Positions 18,306-31,753 of a stretch of DNA of 63,105 bases are shown here, piece by piece. Both the position numbers and the translations under genes were made by a program. The stretch comes from Patellaria atrata CBS 101060 (Eukaryota). Positions within the stretch are counted from its first letter, which is position 1. Each line of letters begins with the position of its first letter. Under the pieces are notes generated by a model, which was not told the DNA's origin, ran no database searches, and was given only the letters and a program-made list of their open reading frames with translations. The stretch covers positions 500,123 to 563,227 of the forward strand of contig MU006102.1 in the NCBI GenBank assembly GCA_010093705.1, in the 5' to 3' direction.

Positions 18306-19942
18306 CTAGGGTAAGGGCACGTCTGTCCAATCCTATATCCGTATATTAATCTTCCCATTCCGTTCAAATGTCATAGGAACCGGTACTCACCCACGTTAGA
18401 TTATTTGCAGTACTAGCATCTTCGTTCCACTCCTACTTATGTGTTAACACCGTATACAAAATGGAAGATTGTATAGGTACTTACTGGATTTAGGAATGGC
18501 GGCAAAGGAGGACTCGGCGGCAGATCTTCTAGCATAGAAAAGTTGTACTCCCTTCTGCAGAGCGGGCAATACTCTCTGCTCTCGAGCTCCACCTTCATAC
18601 ATTCGAAGTCGTAGGCATGTTGGCAGTCCGGCATCACGACCTCCATCCCTTCTTCCCAAGGGGTCCAGCACCGTAAACATTTATTCTCCCTCATTTGTGG
18701 AATATCCTTTTCTTTAAGCTTCACGCTGTACGCGCGTACAATATCAGATGTTGTCAACTCTAAGGGCTCTGATCTCTTCTCTGGCCGTTGGACATAAGGA
18801 CCAAGTTTATCGTCTACCAAATTACATATCTCCTCGATTATCGGTACCGTATCCACGAATTTCCAATCGTCTGAGGCCTCTGGCCTAATCTCGGTTGCTT
18901 CTTCGTCAACGATATCATGGCCACCTTCTTCCCCGTGAGTGGGAAGCGCTTCAGCTTTTACGCTTTCCGAACTTTCAATGAAGAGGCCCTCAAATTGCCC
19001 AAGGATCTCGTCTTCGGATAGAGCTACCTCGTGCTCGGATACTTGCTGCGGATCGACCGTCCATAGAGCTGGTAGTCCGTTTTCCTTTTCCTCAGCCTCT
19101 AGAAGGATGGAAAGGATTGACTTCGTCTGCTGGTAAGGATTCACGATCTGCCTCCGCCGTACTGAGTCCGTTACTCCCGTTGTCGGATCCACCACCTCCA
19201 GTCTAGAAGCACGTTCACCTCCAGTCTCATTGGGTTCGTTGGTGGCTGTCATAGCCATCAGTTCTTACTCACGTAAAGATGTTAGGCAGTAGGTGGACGT
19301 ACCGTGAGCTCTAATAGCCCGATCCCACCAAATGTCTTTCATCACGTCCATACAGTATGCGGAGGTGCGCTTATTAGATTTAGAGGAGCCCGTCGGATCT
19401 GGTACTAAACCGTCGTCTTTCAGAACCCGACGCATGAGCCATACCATTTGGTCCCGTATCAGGGAAATATCTTGTTGTGACAGGCCGACCTTATGGGCAT
19501 CTTGATCTTTACCATTACAATGTGGTCGAGCCGCCCATGCTGATACTCGTATCTTCTTTTCACTGAGAAGTTTCGCTCCAAAGACGAAATCATCAACCCA
19601 GTTAATTATGGGGGCCGGCCCCTCCCTTGGGATGAATGGACGGGGCTCGTAACCCTTCTCTTTGAGGTACGCGTTCATAATGGAGAAACGCCATTCCAAA
19701 ATCTCGATATTACGCCCACCGCGGAACCATTGCTGAAGTTGTTCCCAGTCGGACCTTGCTATATCCTCGCCGAAACAATAAGGACAGAGAATGCCCTCCA
19801 TTGTGATTGGATGTAAAATTTCTCTGTGTGCCGAGAAGAAGAACGACTCCCCAAAGCGCGTGTAATGTGTGTCACAGTGAGGGCAAAGCAGGCCATCGAG
19901 GCAGAAATGACAATCTAGCGGCTCTAGTGTTGACGCGGCCAT
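18306..19942 (-). CDS. RING finger protein with N-terminal CxxC clusters (4 exons)
   Basis: ORFs 19265..20086 and 18437..19258 join in frame through intron 19302..19246 (GTACGT...ACAG). RING-like CLRC...PDCQHAYDFEC...CPLCR. Two further short 3' introns lead to a stop at 18306-18308. Confidence 0.75.
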
Positions 19943-22489
19943 CGTAATGATATTGACATGTGTGTCAAGATAATCGTACTGGTTTGCTGCTGACGGAACA
20001 AAACAAAAGAAGGAAGCTCTAGTCAGAAAAGATATTTGTAAATGTGGGGTGGGGAGAGGTGGTAGGTGTAGGCGTTGCTCTCCCAACCCAGATGTCGGTC
20101 AAAAACACGATCACGATCCGTTATGTCGGTTTGCCAAGAGGAAAGAGCTACGTCCCAGGGTCCAGCCAGTAGGGGCGGGTTGTGAAAGGCAGGAGTCAGG
20201 TACTTTAGAACTACTGCGGCTGCAAGAGGACCTCTAGGAATAGTAGGGGCAGCTGCAGCGCTATACACAATACAACAGTCGAGTCCATGGAGAACCTCTG
20301 TGCGCGCGGATATTGTACGATTCCCCGTAATGGAGAGGATAATGCTTTCTCAAGTAAGGCCTCTTCTTGAGCTGTCTACGTACCTACCAACTCAGAGAAC
20401 CAAGTCATCATACATACAGCATACAAGCTGAATCTGCGGACGTTTCCTGCCTTCTAATGCACTCACAATGTTCAAAGCTCTTTGCATTGTAAAGAACCGC
20501 GCTCCACCTTTCGGAGGCGCTCCTATGCACGAATGTCTCTTCTGTTCCTGGAGACTGGCCAGTTCTGCTCCATCACGACCATACACGCAATCACCGCATC
20601 ATATCCTCATCCTAAGTCTATCACACTCCAGGCTTCTTCATACAAGGCCAACACTTCCTTCTGTCATGCTATTAACCTCATTTAGCCCTGAGGTCAACCT
20701 AGATAGAAGAGATATCCTGATTATAACCGTCATAGCAGCACAGACATTTGGATAATCTAGGTTGTTTCTCGCTCCAAAGCGCTGACGATAGCACAGCATA
20801 TGGTGAGTGATAGATAGACCAAGGATGCACACAACAAAGGCCTATGGGATTCCTTGTTCGCTGACTCATATACTAGAATGTGACTGTAGTAGAACAATGC
20901 ATACGAATAGACAATGAGATCCTTGAATGTTGAAGAGATGGTTGGACTCTAACGAAATTAGGGGGAGATCCGCTGGAGTAGCTACCCACTCCGAAGTCTC
21001 AGAGCCTCGAGTAAATCGTAGATACTGGTCAACCTGCTTTGGAAACTAGCTGGGATGTAGCTTCTATCACCAACGTAGGAATCATTTCTAGCAGATTTGT
21101 ATCCTGTAGGGCCGTGGGAAAAGACTACTCCTCCCCCCTATTACCCGATATCTTAGCGACGAAAATACGCCGTGGGATGTCAAGTAAGAAATAAGATTAC
21201 ACCGATTTATTGATCAACCTGCCGTCCCCAGTGGCCTACGGAATAGGGATTCGTCCAGTTGTTAGATCGGCCTGGAATCACTAGGGTAGTATACATGAAT
21301 GCAACCCGAGAAACGAGTATCAAGCATGGGAAATTGAGAAGCAGGATGCTCGAGGTACTTCTCAGTCACTTCTAAGTTTGTGGGATTCGAAACTCCAAGG
21401 GAACATCCATCTTCTGACTTGGAAGCGTTATAGAGGGATAGAGTAAATTTTGAGAGAGACGGGTGTGTAGGACATCATACTCATAGATATCTGATCTTGA
21501 TCCAGCAGTCCTAAAAATTTCTCAATTTCAAATAACACTTCCATATCCCCTCGCATCCTCTCCGCACTTTACGTTCTGCATACCTTTTCAATCAACTTAA
21601 GTACACAAACTCTCCAACATCTCTCTCACAGTCAAACCATAACTCTTCTATCGCCCTAAACCACGCCATTAGCATCATTCCACGCAGCTCCACCCTTCCG
21701 CCTTCCCCACCCGGCTACCACCAACCCCTTCAAATCTCAGGCATCCAAAACCTCTAATACACTTTCTACCCACCCATCGCATTCCCTACAATCATATACC
21801 ACGCTAGCCCTAATCCCAACCTCTCTACCATAAATTTAGCACCCCAATACCGAAAATACCAAATTCGATAGTATCATAGCAATCCCGCAGTTAGAAAATT
21901 AACTCCTGTGATTTTGACCCTGGAATACCTGATATGAGAGAGTGCTGGTAAAGAATGGTAGGGCTCCTGTTACCGTCTCTTGGTGCTCATGTGGCTCTTG
22001 ATATACCTCGCACAAGACTCGAAATGTATGTAGTGCTGAATACCGATTGGGAAATTGGATTTCATCTTGAGCATCTATGGGCTATTGATGCCAGACTCGA
22101 CCGATCTGATACCGAGGTTGACTGTTACAGTTGGTTGCCCAGGCAACAGATAGGATGGGTGGAGGGAAGCAAGTAGGAACGTTTAGGGGGGAATGAACTG
22201 GGGTGTTTGAAGATTTGGACAGAGGTGTGGGTTGGTACTATCGTATATATACGCGAAGGTTATGTGAGACCGAGCAATATGATGGGCTATTCAGTAGATG
22301 TAGATATCTACTGATCATACCAGTAATGCCATTACCAGTCCTGCTTCGATATAGATCAAGTTCGCCTTCCCATCTCAGCTTGATAATCCAAAAATAAAAA
22401 ATAAAAAGAATTAAGAACTAAATAATAATGGGCAGATAGCGTAGTTAGGAAAAATTTAAAAAAAAAAAAGGGAAAATTGACACAGCAAT

Positions 22490-22585
22490 AAAAAGAGTCG
22501 AACCCAGGTGACGTTTAAGTCAACTGTGACGGCACTGCAGGTAGACGAAGTACTTGCCTACTCAGTCACATGCCCGAGTTCGATG
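22490..22585 (-). ncRNA. Candidate Pol III structured small RNA, copy 1
   Basis: Minus strand reads CATCGAACTCGGGCATGTGACTGAGTAGGCAAGTACTTCGTCTACCTGCAGTGCCGTCACAGTTGACTTAAACGTCACCTGGGTTCGACTCTTTTT. It is 58/62 identical to copy 2 over the 5' part, with a B box (GGTTCGACTC) and a T5 terminator-like run. Confidence 0.7.
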
Positions 22586-23100
22586 GAAGAAGAAGTGGTT
22601 GAGAGTGCTTGTGAATTGCAAGCTGGGAGGGCAGTCACTCGTGGTTTTGCTTCCTTCCCTTTTTAGTCCCCCCCTATTTTTTGCTAACTTTTCACACTTT
22701 TGGCACCGCGAATTCTTACTACTGTATCTCGCCTTTTTCTTCTTTTCATGTTTGAACAATAGAATAAGCGAGGCCGCGATCAAAACGCCCGGAAGACCTC
22801 CTTTTCATTTGATTTTGGGGGGGGGGGGATTCCTTTTCCGGTTATGGTATTTGAGGATTTGAGGGAGAAGAGGACGCAACGCTATTTGCGTCGGAGGATT
22901 ATCTGGATAGGTTATTTACCGGGTTACCTTAGATATAATGGTATCTTTGTTTCATCTGGTATATGTGAGATATTATCTACACAAAACTATGAAAGAGGTA
23001 CATTGAGGTGACAGGAAACTCAGTGAAACGGTTATTTCAGAAAGGAGATATGTACATATGATATCTTCACCACTTTCCAGCCGATCCCCTCGCTTTCCCA

Positions 23101-24053
23101 TTATATCGCCCCTAATTCTTTCAGCTTCCTGATCATACCATCCACATCCTCCACCTTCCCACCCCCCTGCCGTGGCGGCGGCTCCCTCACCTCCACAGTC
23201 TTCAACCTCCTCTTTACATCCCCCTCGCCGATATAATCCCCGACATTCTTCTTCTCGAGCGGTTTCTTCTTCGCCTTCATGATATTCGGCAGACTCGCAT
23301 ACCTCGGCTCATTCAATCTCAAATCCGTCGTAACAACCGCTGGTAACTTCAACTTCAACGTCTCAACACCGCCATCGACCTCACGAGTCACCATAATCTC
23401 GTCCGCAGAGCCAACCTTAACAGTCGCCGCTTGCGTCGCCTGCGTCCACCCTAACAGACCCGCAAGCATGGGCCCCGTCTGCGCAGCATCATCATCAATA
23501 CTCTGTTTTCCCAAAAATACGAGATTCACCTTCTCGGCCTCGACGACCTTCGCGAGAATCTTCGCCACCGTCAGCGGTTCTAAGCTTTCCATGCCTTCGC
23601 CATCGTGTTGGATGTGGACGCCTTTGTCCGCGCCCATAGCCAATGCGGTCCGTAGGACGTCTTGGGACTTGGCGGGGCCGACGGAGACGCTGGTGATGGT
23701 TTCGACGGGAATCGGGGATTGTTTCTTCGCATGACGTTCACGGAGGCGTACTGCCTCTTCGACGGAGAGCTCGTCGAAAGGGTTCATACTGTGTTTTACG
23801 CCCGTGGTCTCGATGCCGGTGTTGGATTTAGAGACGCGGGGTTTGACCTGGAGAAAGGGGTTAGCTTTGAGTCGTCTAGAGAGTGTATAAGGACCAAACT
23901 AAGATCATTGAAAAGAGGAATGATTTTTCAGTTTCATTCTTAGACTTTGCAATACTGTAATCCATTCCTGGCTGGGATTGCGGGATTGCGGAGGGAGCTT
24001 ACAGCATAGTCTATGACTCGTTTCACGGGTACGAGGATACGGAGCGCTGACAT
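23101..24053 (-). CDS. CIR1: Electron transfer flavoprotein beta subunit (2 exons)
   Basis: Exon 1 MSALRILVPVKRVIDYA; intron 24002..23848; motifs SMNPFDE, LGKQSIDDD and DLRLNEPRYASLPNIMKAKKKP. Confidence 0.96.
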
Positions 24054-24748
24054 TGTGATCGGATTTCAATTATTATTCAGCTTTTAAGGGATTCGTTCTC
24101 TCTAGAGGAAACAATGGCAGCGTACAGTTGAGAAATCGGAGGTGATGCTCTGTCATCGGCTAGAGCAGAGGTTGAAGAAAAGCTCGGGATTCGGTTGATA
24201 AGATCCCCACTCTAGTAAGGTCCGGTAACTTGGAGACGGAAGAGCCGCAATTTCGATAAGGAGACGATTAAAAGCAACAAGGATGGGTTTAATATCAATT
24301 TTAAGTCTCAAGTTCGAATTCAAATACTGCCATCACGTTGTGTATCATTACAATTCTAACATCCATTTTAGACGCCCCGCCCGTCTAAGCAATAAAAGTA
24401 CATATATCCATTCATTGTTCAGAAAAGGGGATCGAGTCATAAAAGCCTCAGTATAGGCGGGAATCAAAATAAAAGATTGGAAGCCATAGGTAGTAAAACA
24501 AAATCAGCTCCGTCCTGCGGCGCATAGACGAAAAAAGGAGATCTTAATCGCCCATGCTTTGCAAGAAATCAGAGCCATTCCACCCGCCCATTTTTTTTTG
24601 TTTTCGCTACAACTCCATGAAAAAGAAGAGAACGTGATGTGTTAAGGGCATTATTGAATGCTTCTGGATTGGTTACTGCAAGCTGCTAACTTGATACGAT
24701 TGCCACCTCCTTCCATCAACTGAACATCAATGAAGTAGGACGTGTGGC

Positions 24749-26074
24749 TTAGGCATTGGAGCCAGCAGGGAGGCTACCAGAACCCTCCGCAGTGGATGGA
24801 GCACCATCAGTGGTCTCAGGGGCACCTTCAATAGGAGCATTGGGGTCATGGTCCTCCTTACCAGGGCTATCGATGGCTACCTTGACGGCGATCTCACGGC
24901 CCTCAATTTCCTTACCGTTCATCTCATCGCAAGCCTTCTTCTGCATTTCCTCAGAAGCCAAAGTGACGAAACCGAAACCACGCCCCTTGCGGGGCTCATT
25001 GCGGGCTTGAAGCTTCTTGACCATGAAACGAGGGATAGGACGAAGGGCGATCTTGGCTGAAGTTGCCTGGTAGCCCTTGAAGAGTTCCAACAGCTACGAC
25101 AGTTAGCTAATTTCACAACTGAACAAGGAACCATTCATTTACCTTTTCCTCAGTGAGATCATAGGGGAGGTTAGCGACCATAACCTTGGTTGTAGATGGA
25201 ACACCATCCTCGGGAGGTCCACGTTGCTTGCGCTCCCTAAGAGCAGGGGACTTGCCGGTCTTGGATGGATCGGCCGTCATAATTCCAACAGTGCCCTTTT
25301 CAGCCGTGAGTGCTTGATTCGTAGTCTCAGTAAGAGGGAGAACTTGGCCAGGTACATTTGTAGGGGCATCAGCTGCGGGAGCTTCCTCAGTAGCGGGAGC
25401 TTCTCCGCCTTCAGCATTTTCCTTGCGACCCTATATTCTTGTCAGAATTTCCATGCAAACTTCTAATGTAGATAATACTTACACGGCCTCCACGGTTAGA
25501 ACGGCCACCGCGGCCGCGACCACGTCCACCACGACCCCGGGTGGATTTGGTCCTCTTGGGTTCCCCGTTGGTACCCTCAGCGCCGGCTTCATGTGCCTCG
25601 GGTTTACGAGCAAGTTGAATGGAAACCTTGCGGTCAAGGATGGACTTGCCATTCAACTCAGTGATCGCACGGTCGGCCTCAGATGGGGTAGAGAGATCAA
25701 CGAAGGCATAGCCGACGGGACGGGTGGTGCGTGGGTTTGTAGGAATAGAGGTAGACTCACTGCAAAACGATGAATCAGTAAATGTCCAGTCATGCCACCT
25801 CCTGAGTCATAAGGATGCAATGTTGGGTGCAAACTTACACCAAGTAGTCCTTGAAAAATTCCTTCAACTCCCCCTCGGTGGTCGCATACGCGAGATTCCC
25901 AATGTAAAGTCTCCTACCCTCGGCGGCACTGGCAATGACAGCTGGATTCTCAGCTGCATTGATAGGAGTGTCGCCTCCAGCACCAACGTTGGCACCTTCT
26001 GCGGTACCAGTGGGCTCATTGAGGGTAGTGTTTGCCAACTGGGCGGTAGCACTGTCGACAGCAGCGGCGGACAT
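24749..26074 (-). CDS. Two-RRM, RGG-containing RNA-binding protein (Sbp1-like), 4 exons
   Basis: RNP2 RRLYIGNLAY, RNP1 GYAFVD and GRGFGFVT, RGG linker RGRGGRGRGRGGR; ORF pieces are separated by GT-AG introns. Confidence 0.9.
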
Positions 26075-26879
26075 GATGATTGTAGTTTTTTGTTTGTTGA
26101 TGACACGAGATGTGTTTTTTTAAAAAGATGTACTTCGGAGAATGAAGTACTTTGATACACGTGCTAAGATTGAGGAAACTGTGATTGTCCTGGGTAGAGC
26201 CTTGAGGTCTGCCTGCGAACGATGTTTGTACTTGGGGTTTTATGGTATTGTCGAGTACCGCCTGGATTGGTGGGATCTAGTTGACAAGAGGGAGGGAGTG
26301 GGTAGCTAAGAGCCCGAAAGTTGAGTGTTTTGGATGTGTTGATCAAAGGGTGATTCTCAAATTTGACGATGTGTTGTTGATGAAGAAGAAGAAAAGGAAG
26401 AGGAGGGCTACCTCCTTTAAAGGGCAGTAATAATTTTCGAAGAGGACAGCACGAAGCGAAGCGGAACTAAACCGGAAAGGGCAACTTAGGGGACCGTGCG
26501 GGCAGCAGCGACCCAGATGAGGCTCTTCCGCGCATGATGCACGTCAACCTGCTGCAAACCCCTTGACATGACTCGACATCAAAATTATATTACCGTATTA
26601 AGGTAAGGAGCATGTGATATTCATGAGGAAAATAATAATCACTTTTATTTTCAATCTCTGTATTAAGGACAAGATATGTTGAATCATTTGTGAACGTCTG
26701 ACTAAGAATTCGAGATAGAACTACTACTTTTGATAGGACTTCCTCCAGGCAGCATATGATACCGATAGCGATACCGGAGGCTTAGGATAAGATCCAGAAG
26801 TATTTTATTGCTGTATATCCCGTAGATATTACTTGCAGCATCATTTCTTCCAACTGTTCAAGTACATCTTTCGTCTAAC

Positions 26880-29165
26880 ATGTCTTTGGTGGATCGTACA
26901 GCGTTGGTACTCTATGGGTCAGAGACTGGCAACGCTCAAGATGTGGCTGAAGAGCTAGGACGCCTCACGGAACGACTGCGCTTCTCGACGGAGGTGAAAG
27001 ATCTTAATTCTGTCGAACTTGTATGTCAAGAGAGTAACTATTGAGGCAACTAGATAGTCAATCTACCGGAAGGCTGATCAAAGACCCCTCAGAACCAATT
27101 ATTGCGTGCCACGGTGGTGATCATTGCCATCTCAACCACAGGCCAAGGTAACCTCCCAGCGAATTCTCGAAAGTTCTGGAGGACTTTAAGAAGTGTACGT
27201 CTCCCTCCTGGTTGTCTGAACAAGGTCCGCATGACCGTTTTTGGGCTTGGGGACAGCTCATACTCTCAGTATGCTACTACACCAAGCCCCTGATTTTGCC
27301 CGATTGACTGACCGGTCAGATTCAATTGGGCTGCTCGTAAACTACATAAACGCTTGATACAGCTGGGCGCCCAATCGATATGTGACCGGGGAGAGGCGGA
27401 CGAGCAAGATTCGGAAGGGTGAGGCTCATCTATTCTTTAAGTCCTTCTGTGACTCACAGCGTAAACTTGTAGCACTGATGGCCAACTTATCCCCTGGTCA
27501 TTAAAACTCCGAGAAACTCTCTTGGAGCAATATCCTCTGCCTGACGGTATCGATCCAATACCCGATAACATTCTGCTACGGCCCAAATTATTACTGGAAT
27601 TCTTGCCTGATTCAAGTGACCCCTTAGGCACTGCTCCTATCCAAAGAGAAGTGCATAGTAATAAGCACACTGAGAGTAAACCTTCCATTATCAGTGATAT
27701 CCCGAGCTCACTAAGCTCAGCCTTTCCGTACGGTCTACCCGCTGATGGTCTACCGAATGGCGGTTCACCAGAGGATAGCCCACCAGAGGATAGCCCACCA
27801 GATGATCTTCTCCCAGTACTTGGATCACATACCGCAACTCTTTACAGCAACAAGCGCATAACTCCAGTTACACACTGGCAGGATGTCCGTCACCTCACCT
27901 TTTCCCTTCCGGGAACCATACCCTACGCTCCAGGGGATGCGATGACCATCTACCCCAAAAACTTCCCTTCCGACGTCTCCCAATTCATCTCCCTCTTCGA
28001 CTGGACCTCCATCGCCGACCGGCCCCTTCACTTCGTCCGTATGGTAACTCACGACTTCACGGGCGCCTCGCCTTTACCACCCCCTCCAATTAATCATGGC
28101 TTCCTCGCGTCCCCCCTCACAATCCGCACCCTACTCACCAATCACCTCGACATAATGTCTATTCCACGTCGCTCTTTCTTTTCCCTCGTCGCTCACTTCA
28201 CCACCGACGAGTTCCAGCGGAACCGCCTTCTAGAATTTACGAATCCCGAATTTATTGACGAGCTTTTCGACTACACGACACGTCCCCGTCGAAGCATTCT
28301 CGAAGTCCTGCAGGAGTTCGAAACAGTCAAGATACCGTGGCAATGGCTCTGTACCATCATCCCCTTCATGCGGGGTCGACAATTCAGCATCGCGAGCGGT
28401 GGAATCCACAACCTCATTTCACTTCCGAACGGGGAGCTCAGGACGAAAGTTGAACTGCTGGTCGCAATAGTAAAGTATAAGACTGTGATCAAGAGAATCA
28501 GACAGGGCGTCTGTACTCGATACATAGCCTCGCTTCGACCAGACCAGGATATCACAGTCACATTCCACAAAGGCGATCTTCACGTCTCCCGCGCAGAAGC
28601 AGACAAATCAGCCATCATGATAGCCACAGGGACCGGTGTCGCGCCCATGCGCTCGCTCATATGGGAAAGGGTAAAATGGGCCGGCGAACCGATCATAAAA
28701 CAAAACGCAAACGGGGAACAGGAATCCAATACTGGTATCGACTCTCCAGTCTCCCCAGGCCCCAACCTCCTCTTCTTCGGCAACCGCAACCGCGCTGCGG
28801 ATTTCTTCTTTCAAGACGAGTGGACATACCTAGCCGATCAATGGACCCGATGGCCCACTTCCATCACCCCAGAAATTCAATCGAAACTTCCCGCGCTTGC
28901 GGTCTTCACCGCCTTCTCCCGCGATCAGCGGCACAAGATATACGTCCAGGACCTCCTCGTGGAGCAGTCGGCACTCGTGTACGACCATCTAGTTAACAGA
29001 CAGGGCATCGTGTTTATCTGTGGAAGCTCGGGTAAGATGCCGACGAGTGTAAAGGATGCGCTGGTGAAGGTTTTGGAGAAGGAAGGTGAAATGGAGAGAA
29101 TGGCAGCGGAAGGGTATTTGGCGGGATTGGAGAAAGGGGGCAGGATCAGGCAGGACACGTGGTAG
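26880..29165 (+). CDS. TAH18: NADPH-dependent diflavin oxidoreductase (NDOR1/Tah18)
   Basis: ATG at 26880, flavodoxin motifs LYGSETGNAQDVAE, STTGQG and FGLGDSSY; FAD/NADPH motifs RQFSIAS, GVCTRY, ATGTGVAPMRS and CGSSGKMP; C-terminal QDTW. Confidence 0.95.
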
Positions 29166-29700
29166 ATGGGAAATTGGCAGATGAGTTGTGAGGGTTGGAA
29201 GTGTTCTTGGTGTAGGACTTGAGAGTTTGGGGATATATTTGGAAATTGGAGTGATATAGAATTCGGCGGTGTTTTGTAGGTGCAGTGAAATTTCCGTCAT
29301 TGATGTGTATCACCCACTCACTATGCCATTCTTTTCTACCTCCCATATCCCTATCATTTTACCACTCATCCGTGAGTAAAACCCGTCAAAAAAAAAAGGA
29401 AACCTCAAGCTACCAATATCTTCACAACATAGTGTGAAATGAAAAAATAAAAAATAAAGACCATATAATTCAAGAAACAAAGAAGAAAAACACTACAAAA
29501 TAAAATAAACAGTTCTCCGTTAAAATTGTGATTGATGATTGCAGTTTGTATCCTTGAATCCCGTTATTTTATGGTTGCTTAAGAAACCCACTTTGTCTTA
29601 AACTCTGTTATTCCCTCTCATAGTACCAGAACGTTTGCAAGTCATGAGTACTAAACCCTTTGCAAAAGAGGTTATAAGCAACCCCAACTTCTTCTTCCTG

Positions 29701-29800
29701 CATCGAACTCGGGCATGTGGCCGAGTAGGCAGGTACCTCGTCTACCTGCAGTGCCGTCACAGATCGACTTCTTAACCAAAGTCACTCGGGTTCGATTTTT
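29701..29800 (+). ncRNA. Candidate Pol III structured small RNA, copy 2
   Basis: CATCGAACTCGGGCATGTGGCCGAGTAGGCAGGTACCTCGTCTACCTGCAGTGCCGTCACAGATCGACTTCTTAACCAAAGTCACTCGGGTTCGATTTTT. A box TGGCCGAGTAGG (29718-29729), B box GGTTCGA, T5 run followed by a longer T tract, 12-bp terminal stem. Confidence 0.72.
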
Positions 29801-30320
29801 GCCTCTCTTAACTTTTTTTTTTTTCTAATTTTCTCCTGAGTATCCTCCTATTCTTTTTCTTTTTCTTTTTTGAGGAATGGAGGAGGTTGTCTGCCTGGCT
29901 AAGATTGCAATAGAGTGGTGATTGCGTTCCAGTATTCGTGGTTGCTATGGAAACCCACTGTCTTAGATCCTTTGTTTTCCGTCCCTTTTGCGCTGACCAC
30001 AAAAGTCGGTGAGTCTGATAGATCGCCTCGGGTTTGATTTAAAGGTTGTACACCGCTCAGGTCTCAACTTCTAGTTCTGATTGATATTGATCTTTTCCTA
30101 AAGACTAGAGACTGGAGACTGAAGACTAAGACACCCTCTCCACAACCTTGATAGAAGATGAGGTCTACGCTCGAAACCATCCGTAGACGTAATCAACTCG
30201 ACTCCAATCGCCGCACAAGCACCAAGCTAAAACAGAAATGTATAATACATCCTATAATCCCTGTCCCCCTAACCGCATACCTCCAATCCTCTTCTCCATC
30301 TCTTCTCCTCCACTCCACCC

Positions 30321-31753
30321 CTACCACTCCTCCCAATCCTCCTTCTTCCCCGACGTCTCTTGTCCCGGCCTCCTCATCGCCGCAGTCCCAATACTACTCT
30401 TCGGCTTCTCCTTCTCGACCCTCGCCTTACCCGCAGCAGCAAACTCATCCCAAAACCCACGTTTGTCCGGCGCGGGCCCATTAGCCGGGGCGCCGAAGGA
30501 GTCCCAAAAGTCCTGTTTCTCCGGCGCTCTTCTGTTCGCTTGATGATCGCCCTCGACGAAGCGGTTGAAGGACTCGCCTACCGTTCTCGTGCTGCTTGTT
30601 ACCGTGGTCGAGAGGTTGGTTGTCAGGGCTGTGGCTTTGGACGGGAGGTCTGCTTCTTGTAGCTGTTTCGTAAGGCGTGGGTTAGCGTGGGTGTGCTTTA
30701 CGCTGTAGCCCTTGTGTCTATTCTGCTTGGAGGGATACTTACTGTCTTTACCCCCGTCTGAACCCCCTTGCTCACTGTACTGCTCAACCACCCAAACCCC
30801 TTCGTCAGCGCGGCCACCGGATCTTGCGCGAAATCATCGACACCGGGGATTCCAGCCTGCTGCTGTCGTTGGGGTGCCGGATCGCTCCCGAACCCCGAGT
30901 ACTTCCCACCCTGGCTGGGGGGCACATCATCGGGACGGGAAGCGTTATCGGCGCCCATGCGCGCGAAGTAGGCTTCATTCTGCGTCTTGCGGGCTATACT
31001 CGCGGTACCGAGGGACGGGGAACCTGAGCGGGCCGTGGTGGGTTGTTGATCAGCCGTGCGGACTCTACCCAGCGGCGTCCCCGATCTGCTTCCAGCACTC
31101 GAATTTCCATTCCCCATCGATGCATGTGGCGCTCTCTTCTGCACTGGTTTCTTCTCTACCGGGACATACTCTCGTCCCTCGACCTTGGCCGTCAAGCGCT
31201 CCTTCCACTCCTCGCCCACCGCCGAGTCGTACCTGTCGTTTATGGTCGAGGCGTCGAAGGTGCGGCCCTCGATCTTATTGTCGGCGTGCGAGTTGAAAAA
31301 GTCCTTCCAGGGCTTGTTGCCGCCGTTTTTCATGCGCACGAGTTCCGCGCCCTTGAAGGCGTCCATGGTTATGCTGCGGATGAAGGAGATGTGCACGCCG
31401 AGGCCGCGGTGTACGCCGGAGCAGGTGAGGCACATGAAAATGCCAAATTTGGGAGAGGCCTGGGTTGACAAAGGGCGTTAGCTGCGGTATGGTATGAGGA
31501 GATATGGGGGAAGTAGACAGTGAATAAGGCAAAGATGAAGGGAACTGTACCCATTGTGGACTCGGCGCACTGCAGTCGACGCAGCGATTATTCTCGTTCT
31601 CCTTCTGGATCTCCATTAACTGTAAACACACGTCAGTCATCATTCAGCTGAACGAAGGCTTTGACAAAGAAAGTCGCATAGTAGTTGGACGATACGAGAG
31701 AAAATACTGACTTTACTCCTGGTCTCAGGATCGACCTCCCACATCTTACTCAT
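30321..31753 (-). CDS. GCS1: ADP-ribosylation factor GTPase-activating protein (4 exons)
   Basis: MSKMWEVDPETRSK start; ArfGAP zinc finger CVDC...[32 protein letters not shown]; ALPS-like DPVAALTKGFGWLSS; C-terminal DWEEW. Confidence 0.95.

Follow-up and report, generated by a model that had tools for sequence, protein, structure and literature searches.

The element at 29702-29800 on the forward strand belongs to a real, uncatalogued, multi-copy unit of the RNA polymerase III (Pol III) type, of which a second full copy lies at 22490-22584 on the reverse strand of the same window (the whole stretch of 63,105 nt analysed here). Its sequence, its fold, its copy number, the positions of its motifs and the lack of a match to known families are all observed. 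Chances are about even that the unit is an uncatalogued, lineage-specific, multi-copy small-RNA gene of type 2 that can be likened to the class of rodent 4.5S, vault or Y RNAs; parts of a tRNA gene probably gave rise to the family at an early date. The two copies in the window, and the block that they share unchanged, are located as follows.

29702-29800, forward strand: copy A, predicted transcript of 99 nt, from A29702 (after C29701) through the end of the T5 run; fold, and R1 covariance model at 158 bits
22490-22584, reverse strand: copy B, predicted transcript of 95 nt; fold z of -2.41, and R1 covariance model at 153 bits
29738-29762, forward strand: 25-nt block of copy A, identical in A and B
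22548-22524, reverse strand: the invariant 25-nt block of copy B

Both copies were found in the sequence at the coordinates given by the first-pass annotation, and the identity of 58 out of 62 nucleotides that it counted in the 5' part equals the 57 out of 61 counted here, with one extra flanking base. The span assigned to the copies needs extending, by about 29 nt on the upstream side and about 45 nt on the downstream side, to take in all of the similarity between them. A repeat finder links the copies as an 87-nt inverted repeat that is 87% complementary (22524-22610 with 29676-29762). Conservation inside the repeated unit is uneven, with 57 of 61 positions kept in the 5' core, 20 of 29 in the spacer and 33 of 58 in the trailer (Fisher p 0.0037 and 6e-6, respectively, versus the core). 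The invariant 25-nt block is situated in the interval from the A box to the B box, and no other part of the element is shared so well with the remaining genomic copies. A 21-mer taken from it occurs twice in the 63-kb window, in both cases within a copy, while 0.00 occurrences are expected. As this block between the promoter boxes is the best kept of all, promoter function alone does not account for its conservation. The two elements also stand out as GC islands (GC 0.54 and 0.51, compared to 0.25-0.40 in the surrounding spacers). No further copies were identified within the 63-kb window, either by motif scans or by the R1 model run with filters off, which places the next best site at 16 bits.

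The features resembling those of a type-2 Pol III promoter and its terminator are distributed over the two copies as given below.

29673-29688, forward strand: copy A, upstream promoter-like motif TATAAGCA-N4-CAAC, with ATAAGCA at -28 to -22 from the predicted start; recognized by its position and its recurrence in other copies
22598-22612, reverse strand: copy B, ACAAGCA-N4-CAAC as upstream motif, at a distance of 28 nt from the stem
29718-29729, forward strand: copy A, A-box-like TGGCCGAGTAGG, beginning at +17 and resembling what we take to be the A-box consensus
22568-22557, reverse strand: copy B, A-box-like motif, from the sequence
29789-29795, forward strand: copy A, B-box-like GGTTCGA, within the 3' strand of the terminal helix P1
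22504-22498, reverse strand: copy B, GGTTCGA, from the sequence
29796-29800, forward strand: copy A, T5 run, putative Pol III terminator, from the sequence and a motif scan
22494-22490, reverse strand: copy B, T5 run, from the sequence
29813-29824, forward strand: copy A, T12 run, putative back-up terminator, conserved in copy B
22458-22469, reverse strand: copy B, T12 run, putative back-up terminator, from the repeat comparison

The A-box-like motif reported in the first-pass annotation is thus present in both copies, and GGTTCGA starts 71 nt after the start of the A-box-like dodecamer. Both blocks are imperfect. The B-box-like block is only half a box, as the two Cs that we presume to follow GGTTCGANN in the consensus are replaced by T in copy A, and the A-box-like block of copy B carries an A at what we take to be a conserved G. 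The combination of GGTTCGA with a T4 run within 4 nt is found in the window only in the two copies, with 0.18 occurrences expected. The T5 run described earlier as immediate to GGTTCGA is so in copy A but is found 3 nt later in copy B; measured from the end of GGGTTCGA, its offset is 0 nt in copy A, 3 nt in copy B and 1 nt in a further copy on a contig of 1,168 nt, and the run has been retained in all three although its offset differs. A T5 run alone may terminate Pol III weakly in fungi. Behind it, the same three copies carry a second, longer T run (T12, T12, and T8 or more). Two separate lines of positioning, one from the AT-rich motif (about 28 nt) and one from the A-box-like block (about 16 nt), lead to the same C/A step at 29701/29702, a placement that follows rules which we take to hold for type-2 promoters. 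The terminal helix has its first nucleotide at exactly this step. Judged from where the A box and the TATA-like motif lie, the RNA is predicted to start at A29702.

The predicted fold is alike in both copies. In each, the two ends pair in a terminal helix of 11-12 bp, and the interior holds a long arm with bulges as well as a small hairpin.

29702-29713, forward strand: P1, 5' strand, pairing with 29785-29796; two G-C/G-U swaps between the copies retain the pairing
29785-29796, forward strand: P1, 3' strand, which holds the B-box-like GGTTCGA
22583-22573 with 22508-22498, reverse strand: P1 of copy B
29716-29761, forward strand: long arm, with P2 formed by 29716-29721 and 29756-29761 and two mutually exclusive hairpins inside
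29725-29732 with 29737-29745, forward strand: P3 of the first-pass annotation, an alternative hairpin in the long arm
29729-29735 with 29743-29749, forward strand: minimum-energy hairpin of 7 bp with a 7-nt loop, from the minimum-energy fold and RNAalifold
29766-29783, forward strand: P4, a small hairpin with a loop of variable length

The structure drawn by eye in the first-pass annotation holds for P1, P2 and P4, which pair as proposed, and 51 out of 52 cells are paired in it compared to 23-44% when the partners are slid. Copy A folds at -38.4 kcal/mol, a value reached by none of 200 shuffled sequences (z -4.25), and copy B at a z of -2.41, while the opposite strands fold worse (z -2.11 and -1.90 for copies A and B, respectively). 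Pairing is retained through three one-sided changes, two G-C/G-U swaps in P1 and one G-U/A-U swap in P2, and one terminal pair is lost in copy B. The four substitutions in the core and the three in the 3' strand of P1 are all transitions. As the three to four G.U pairs of each copy would become A.C mismatches on the other strand, the pattern supports an RNA read from the strand given above. A shuffle control for covariation is non-discriminating with two full sequences, as 253 of 500 shuffles reach the observed values.

The interior of the long arm can be drawn in two ways. The change from a G-C to an A-U pair, earlier called truly compensatory, is so if P3 forms, but it disappears in the minimum-energy and RNAalifold folds, where a competing 7-bp hairpin takes its place. 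Forcing P3 costs 5.1 kcal/mol in copy A and 2.6 kcal/mol in copy B. In the minimum-energy hairpin, the G/A difference between the copies leads to an A.C mismatch in copy B and the C/T difference falls in the loop. The same nucleotides, at 29725-29749 (22561-22537 on the reverse strand), take part in both of these exclusive hairpins, and the G/A and C/T differences leave one of them intact while destabilizing the other. The 7-nt loop of the energetically preferred hairpin is like that of an anticodon arm. Depending on the fold, the invariant block lies either in an asymmetric internal loop (the first-pass structure) or forms the 3' strand of the 7-bp hairpin (the energy minimum).

The family is not restricted to the two copies that the first-pass annotation described, as additional copies are dispersed over other contigs of the same genome. 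Two public DNA runs of the same strain (X1 and X2, obtained from one sample in one study) were compared to the region 22000-30500. Both cover it at an even depth (about 306 in X1 and 410 in X2) with zero differing letters and zero joints. In the two bins that carry the copies, the summed depth is 1081 and 1632 in X1 and 1601 and 2113 in X2, and 14 of the 37 aligned records of X1 are only 90-99% alike. Contigs of 43,080, 40,941 and 33,856 nt match 29696-29757 with six, five and four differences, respectively, and a fourth, the one of 1,168 nt, matches the 3' part of copy B. At 29733-29745, within the element, the Logan contigs that represent the locus itself come to an end, and a repeat containing exact words of at least 31 nt would be expected to cause such breaks. 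The distinct upstream loose ends in X1 (one at 29696, two at 29701 and two at 29716) indicate at least five more loci and hence at least seven in total; these extra copies are known from loose ends of 30 letters, some being a consensus of two records with an agreement of 0.77-0.8, while two copies have been read at full length.

Even these short ends carry a recurrent promoter-like arrangement. ATAAGCA followed by N4-CAAY is situated exactly 28 nt before the stem in all three loose ends that reach that far (the one at 29696 and the two at 29701), so that the motif occupies a fixed distance of 28 nt in five copies (A, B in the form ACAAGCA, and the three loose ends) while the spacer between motif and stem varies. 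All upstream ends seen here begin the stem with a C/A step (CATCGAA or CATCCAA). At the other end of the element, the copy on the 1,168-nt contig reads GGGTTCGA, G and T5, followed about 20 nt further on by at least eight Ts. One other loose end, represented by two records, reads GGGTTCGATACA and shows no T run within its visible 30 letters. The P4 region is strongly divergent among the copies and forms different hairpins, while the 3' GGNTTCGAT is retained. The Pol III gene layout proposed by the first-pass annotation is extended by the upstream motif at 28 nt in five copies, the conserved C/A start dinucleotide and the second long T run.

In order to relate the element to known RNA classes, the window was compared to Rfam and searched for tRNA genes. 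No Rfam family matches at its gathering score in the whole 63-kb window (cmscan), and at E values up to 10 the stretches of 301 nt and 105 nt around either copy return only noise, with no member of the tRNA clan and no known family. Specifically, 5S rRNA, U6, SRP RNA, RNase P/MRP and known ribozymes have no Rfam match in the window (gathering score) or in the copies (E up to 10). ARAGORN likewise identifies no tRNA gene in the whole window, nor in either copy at relaxed thresholds (ps70-90). The earlier statement that the element is not a tRNA, 5S, U6, SRP RNA or known ribozyme is borne out by these searches. As neither search returned a gene in the window, no bona fide Pol III gene is at hand for comparison of the upstream motif and the terminator.

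More contrived identities were also considered. An intron-split tRNA was rejected, as ARAGORN detects no tRNA when one segment of 8-129 nt is removed (12,351 variants per copy), and so was a circularly permuted tRNA, with one reverse-strand match in copy A and none in copy B among 3,025 permutations per copy. The 12-nt arms of the element pair only via G.U wobbles, giving two DNA mismatches per copy at different places, no duplication is seen, and the similarity continues beyond the arms on both sides, all of which speaks against a miniature transposable element of the MITE type. A hammerhead or other ribozyme was dismissed because Rfam gives no match and a CUGA-type core is not kept between the copies. 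An mRNA-type intron within the element (GT...AG and branch site, by eye) would be possible in copy A, where it would measure 56 nt and leave a mere hairpin as spliced product, but a 3' site to match is missing from copy B, and this reading was dropped. An exact search with a 20-mer from the invariant block, which reaches close relatives only, gave one match among metagenome contigs (L001), one among prokaryote genome contigs (L002) and none among viral contigs. The two matches were rejected as homologues and attributed to chance, with R1 scores of 9.5 and 10.5 bits compared to 153-158 bits for true copies. A 21-mer of the block is absent from open-access literature text, and no description of such a family was found in open-access main text on fungal Pol III non-coding RNAs, SINEs and 5S genes.

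The genes of the window are eukaryote-type split ORFs with domains that include WSC, ETF and ArfGAP. Copy A lies between two convergent genes, one encoding an FAD/NAD-binding reductase (forward strand, ORF ending at 29165) and the other an ArfGAP protein (reverse strand, 3' end facing the element), a location for which the promoter of a protein gene was rejected as identity of this copy. Copy B lies 517 nt past the stop codon of an ETF-domain gene on the reverse strand. Both copies hence trail the stop codon of a co-oriented gene, at 537 nt (29165-29702) and 517 nt (23101-22584), and both upstream genes specify flavoprotein-type products (the FAD/NAD-binding reductase and the ETF-domain protein), which in two cases may be a coincidence. 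A-rich stretches are located at 29440-29460, between the upstream stop codon and copy A.

Some additional sequence features were noted around the copies. Copy A is bracketed by a diverged direct repeat (29572-29609 and 29939-29976, or more loosely about 29560-29620 and 29927-29990), positioned 130 nt upstream and 140 nt downstream, with the core TGGTTGCT-N3-GAAACCCAC exact in both repeat copies and 0.12 occurrences expected at three or fewer mismatches. This repeat is too long and too far off for an ordinary target-site duplication, and could have been left by a tandem duplication that took in part of the upstream region; nothing similar to it is found at copy B. A 14-nt stretch at 30027-30040, CTCGGGTTTGATTT, agrees at 13 positions with copy A's P1 3' strand and the first Ts of its T run. 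It lies 242 nt downstream, has nothing else of the element beside it, and may represent chance or a remnant. Between copy B and a RING-finger gene (18437-20349, reverse strand), about 1.7 kb (20756-22490) lack an ORF of 80 or more codons in any frame. Upstream of the copy B region, a run of at least ten Gs after a T-rich stretch, picked up by the terminator scan as a hairpin-like site of 11 pairs (22797-22826), is probably low-complexity spacer.

The main rival to a stand-alone gene, in our judgement an unlikely one, is that the family is a SINE-like or other short tRNA-derived repeat, once mobile and now a relic, with Pol III signals inherited from a tRNA head and an RNA that, if made, has no cellular role. 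Such an origin would suit the occurrence of several dispersed copies of 90-99% identity, the tRNA-type A-box-like block combined with an incomplete half B box, the deviating A box of copy B, and a similarity among copies that seems to begin near ATAAGCA, a possible element boundary. A low-copy, tRNA-related element, AfuSINE2, does exist in a filamentous ascomycete (PMC5063351). The first-pass annotation had named many copies with 3' tails and target-site duplications as the mark of a SINE; several copies there are, but the two full ones show neither target-site duplications nor a SINE tail. Over 12 boundary pairs the best shared word was 5-6 nt, and words of at least 5 nt are shared by about 45% of 5,000 random pairs. 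The copies have neither a body unrelated to tRNA nor a tail that is A-rich or made of simple repeats, sharing only a T-rich trailer of about 45 nt, and the predicted transcribed unit of about 99 nt is short compared to the 140-493 bp given for AfuSINE2 (PMC5063351). With the terminator directly behind the B-box-like block, the transcript could not hold a 3' part for recognition by a LINE. Furthermore, the conserved motif lies upstream of the start predicted from the A box and would be untranscribed, so that retroposition would not copy it; yet the 5' flanks are related among the copies, with ATAAGCA-N4-CAAY at the fixed 28 nt in A, B and three of three loose ends. A core that is better conserved than the spacer and the trailer of the same repeated unit also argues against this rival. 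In mammals, SINE copies have no TATA-like box of their own and rely on the site of insertion, while each of the stand-alone type-2 genes for 7SL, vault, BC200, 4.5SH and 4.5SI RNA is equipped with one at -31/-24, frequently containing two or three G or C (PMC7279448).

Other readings place the function in the DNA, in another polymerase or nowhere at all. It is improbable that the copies act as TFIIIC/Pol III binding sites for a chromatin boundary or for Pol II termination, as do extra-TFIIIC sites of yeast and relics of tRNA genes, with any RNA as a by-product. The A- and B-like boxes and the position of both copies behind a co-oriented gene, 517-537 nt past its stop codon, with copy A between convergent genes, would agree with such a role, but the best-conserved 25 nt lie outside both boxes, the substitutions keep an RNA pairing with G.U on one strand only, and the terminators are retained at variable offsets. 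An RNA made by Pol II, either from an independent TATA-driven small RNA gene or as a structured 3' UTR or read-through piece of the upstream gene, is quite improbable. A TATA-like motif at about -28 would suit Pol II equally, and both copies are oriented as the upstream gene. Against this, the C-box UGAUGA required by box C/D snoRNAs is absent from both copies (by eye), an Sm-site-like AU5G is found in copy A only, the T5 run and the longer T run are retained in three copies, and the element is located more than 500 nt beyond the stop codons, behind the A-rich stretches at 29440-29460. Barely credible, finally, is a disguised tRNA gene, intron-split or circularly permuted, or a plain neutral duplicate without meaning. 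The tRNA-like A-box block would be in favour of the former, but ARAGORN finds no tRNA in the copies as they are, at relaxed settings or with single deletions, the permutations yield nothing but the one reverse-strand match in A, and no match to the Rfam tRNA model is obtained at E values up to 10. The latter would leave five or more extra copies and the uneven conservation unexplained.

Transcription, RNA ends, La binding and function of the element are here read from its anatomy. According to the stand-alone gene reading, each copy would be a member of a dispersed low-copy family (at least seven loci) of independent type-2, that is tRNA-style, Pol III genes. TFIIIC would bind the internal A-box-like and B-box-like blocks, the starts of which are 71 nt apart, and TFIIIB the conserved upstream ATAAGCA at -28/-22. 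Pol III would then start at the conserved C/A step (A29702 in copy A and 22584 in copy B) and stop in the T5 run, the T8-T12 run 12-25 nt further on providing a putative back-up. In the resulting product of 95-99 nt, the ends would form a blunt terminal helix of 11-12 bp that leaves a 3' oligo-U tail, and the molecule would also bear a long bulged arm and a small variable hairpin. A 3' oligo-U tail is the usual site of the La protein, and Pol III RNAs bound by La and laid out with paired ends include the Y, vault, 4.5S, EBER and VA RNAs. The invariant 25-nt block, being outside both promoter boxes, would be the likely working part of the RNA, either as a protein-binding loop or as a switch between alternative hairpins. 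A broader and more tentative proposal, which we consider possible but on the doubtful side, is that filamentous ascomycetes contain an undescribed class of stable, structured Pol III RNAs with an upstream element of their own, a fungal counterpart of the Y, vault and 4.5S RNAs, a class with no member known from fungi, in which the 25-nt block would serve as protein site or conformational switch.

To our knowledge, very few Pol III products are known in fungi beyond tRNA, 5S, U6, SRP RNA and RNase P RNA. If the gene reading is true, a multi-copy, structured Pol III RNA of about 97 nt with its own upstream motif would be a new player in fungal RNA biology, and the element would bring a native Pol III promoter and terminator together in a compact unit, with practical applications such as the expression of guide RNAs. 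Repeat-induced point mutation acts above a minimum repeat size. If the family is a SINE-like relic, it would show that tRNA-derived units below the size attacked by this process can persist as families in genomes of this kind.

Among known systems, the tRNA genes of the fission-yeast type, which carry an upstream TATA element near -30, are similar to the element in an A box or A-box-like block at about +17 from the predicted start, a GGTTCGA block, a T-run terminator and an AT-rich motif near -30. Unlike these, the element has no cloverleaf, lacks the 3' half of the T arm and the 3' strand of the acceptor, and is negative with ARAGORN and the Rfam tRNA model. The AfuSINE2 element of Aspergillus fumigatus is likewise low in copy number, dispersed and equipped with tRNA-type Pol III signals, but PMC5063351 describes a tRNA-unrelated extension and target-site duplications of 4-14 bp in a unit of 140-493 bp, whereas the present element measures about 99 nt, ends right after the B-box-like block, is without duplications and has kept its upstream motif. 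With the Y RNAs and the nematode stem-bulge RNAs (sbRNAs) it shares a Pol III product of about 100 nt, predicted in the present case, that pairs its two ends into a terminal stem and finishes 3' in oligo-U. The GUG/CAC step in P2 (29717-29719 with 29758-29760) resembles the upper-stem motif of Y RNAs and sbRNAs (PMC4726728), a likeness of 3 bp that may easily be due to chance. However, P1 is an unbroken helix of 11-12 bp while in Y RNAs and sbRNAs the lower stem has a bulged C and a 3-nt bulge that form the Ro60 site (PMC4726728), and the topology of the element is a three-way junction without a match in Rfam, unlike that of Y RNAs and sbRNAs. No Y RNAs were known in fungi as of 2015 (PMC4726728). 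The likeness to vault RNAs pointed out in the first-pass annotation is one of layout: about 100 nt, a type-2 A/B promoter, paired 5' and 3' ends and an oligo-U end, as given in part by a review (PMC11012908). It does not extend to the Rfam vault model RF00006, which has no match at E values up to 10, and the same review states that vault RNAs are absent from fungi (PMC11012908). The rodent 4.5SI and 4.5SH genes are mammalian, have no sequence relation to this fungal element and are transcribed as demonstrated by experiment, whereas transcription of the element is predicted from its anatomy. Nevertheless, like the predicted gene here, they specify RNAs of about 95-100 nt, carry internal A and B boxes (A- and B-like blocks in the element), are present in several copies and are restricted to one lineage (PMC7279448). 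They also possess a gene-specific, weakly TATA-like box at about -31/-24, kept from one gene copy to the next as is the upstream motif here, and have originated from a Pol III-transcribed ancestor (PMC7279448), as the element probably has.
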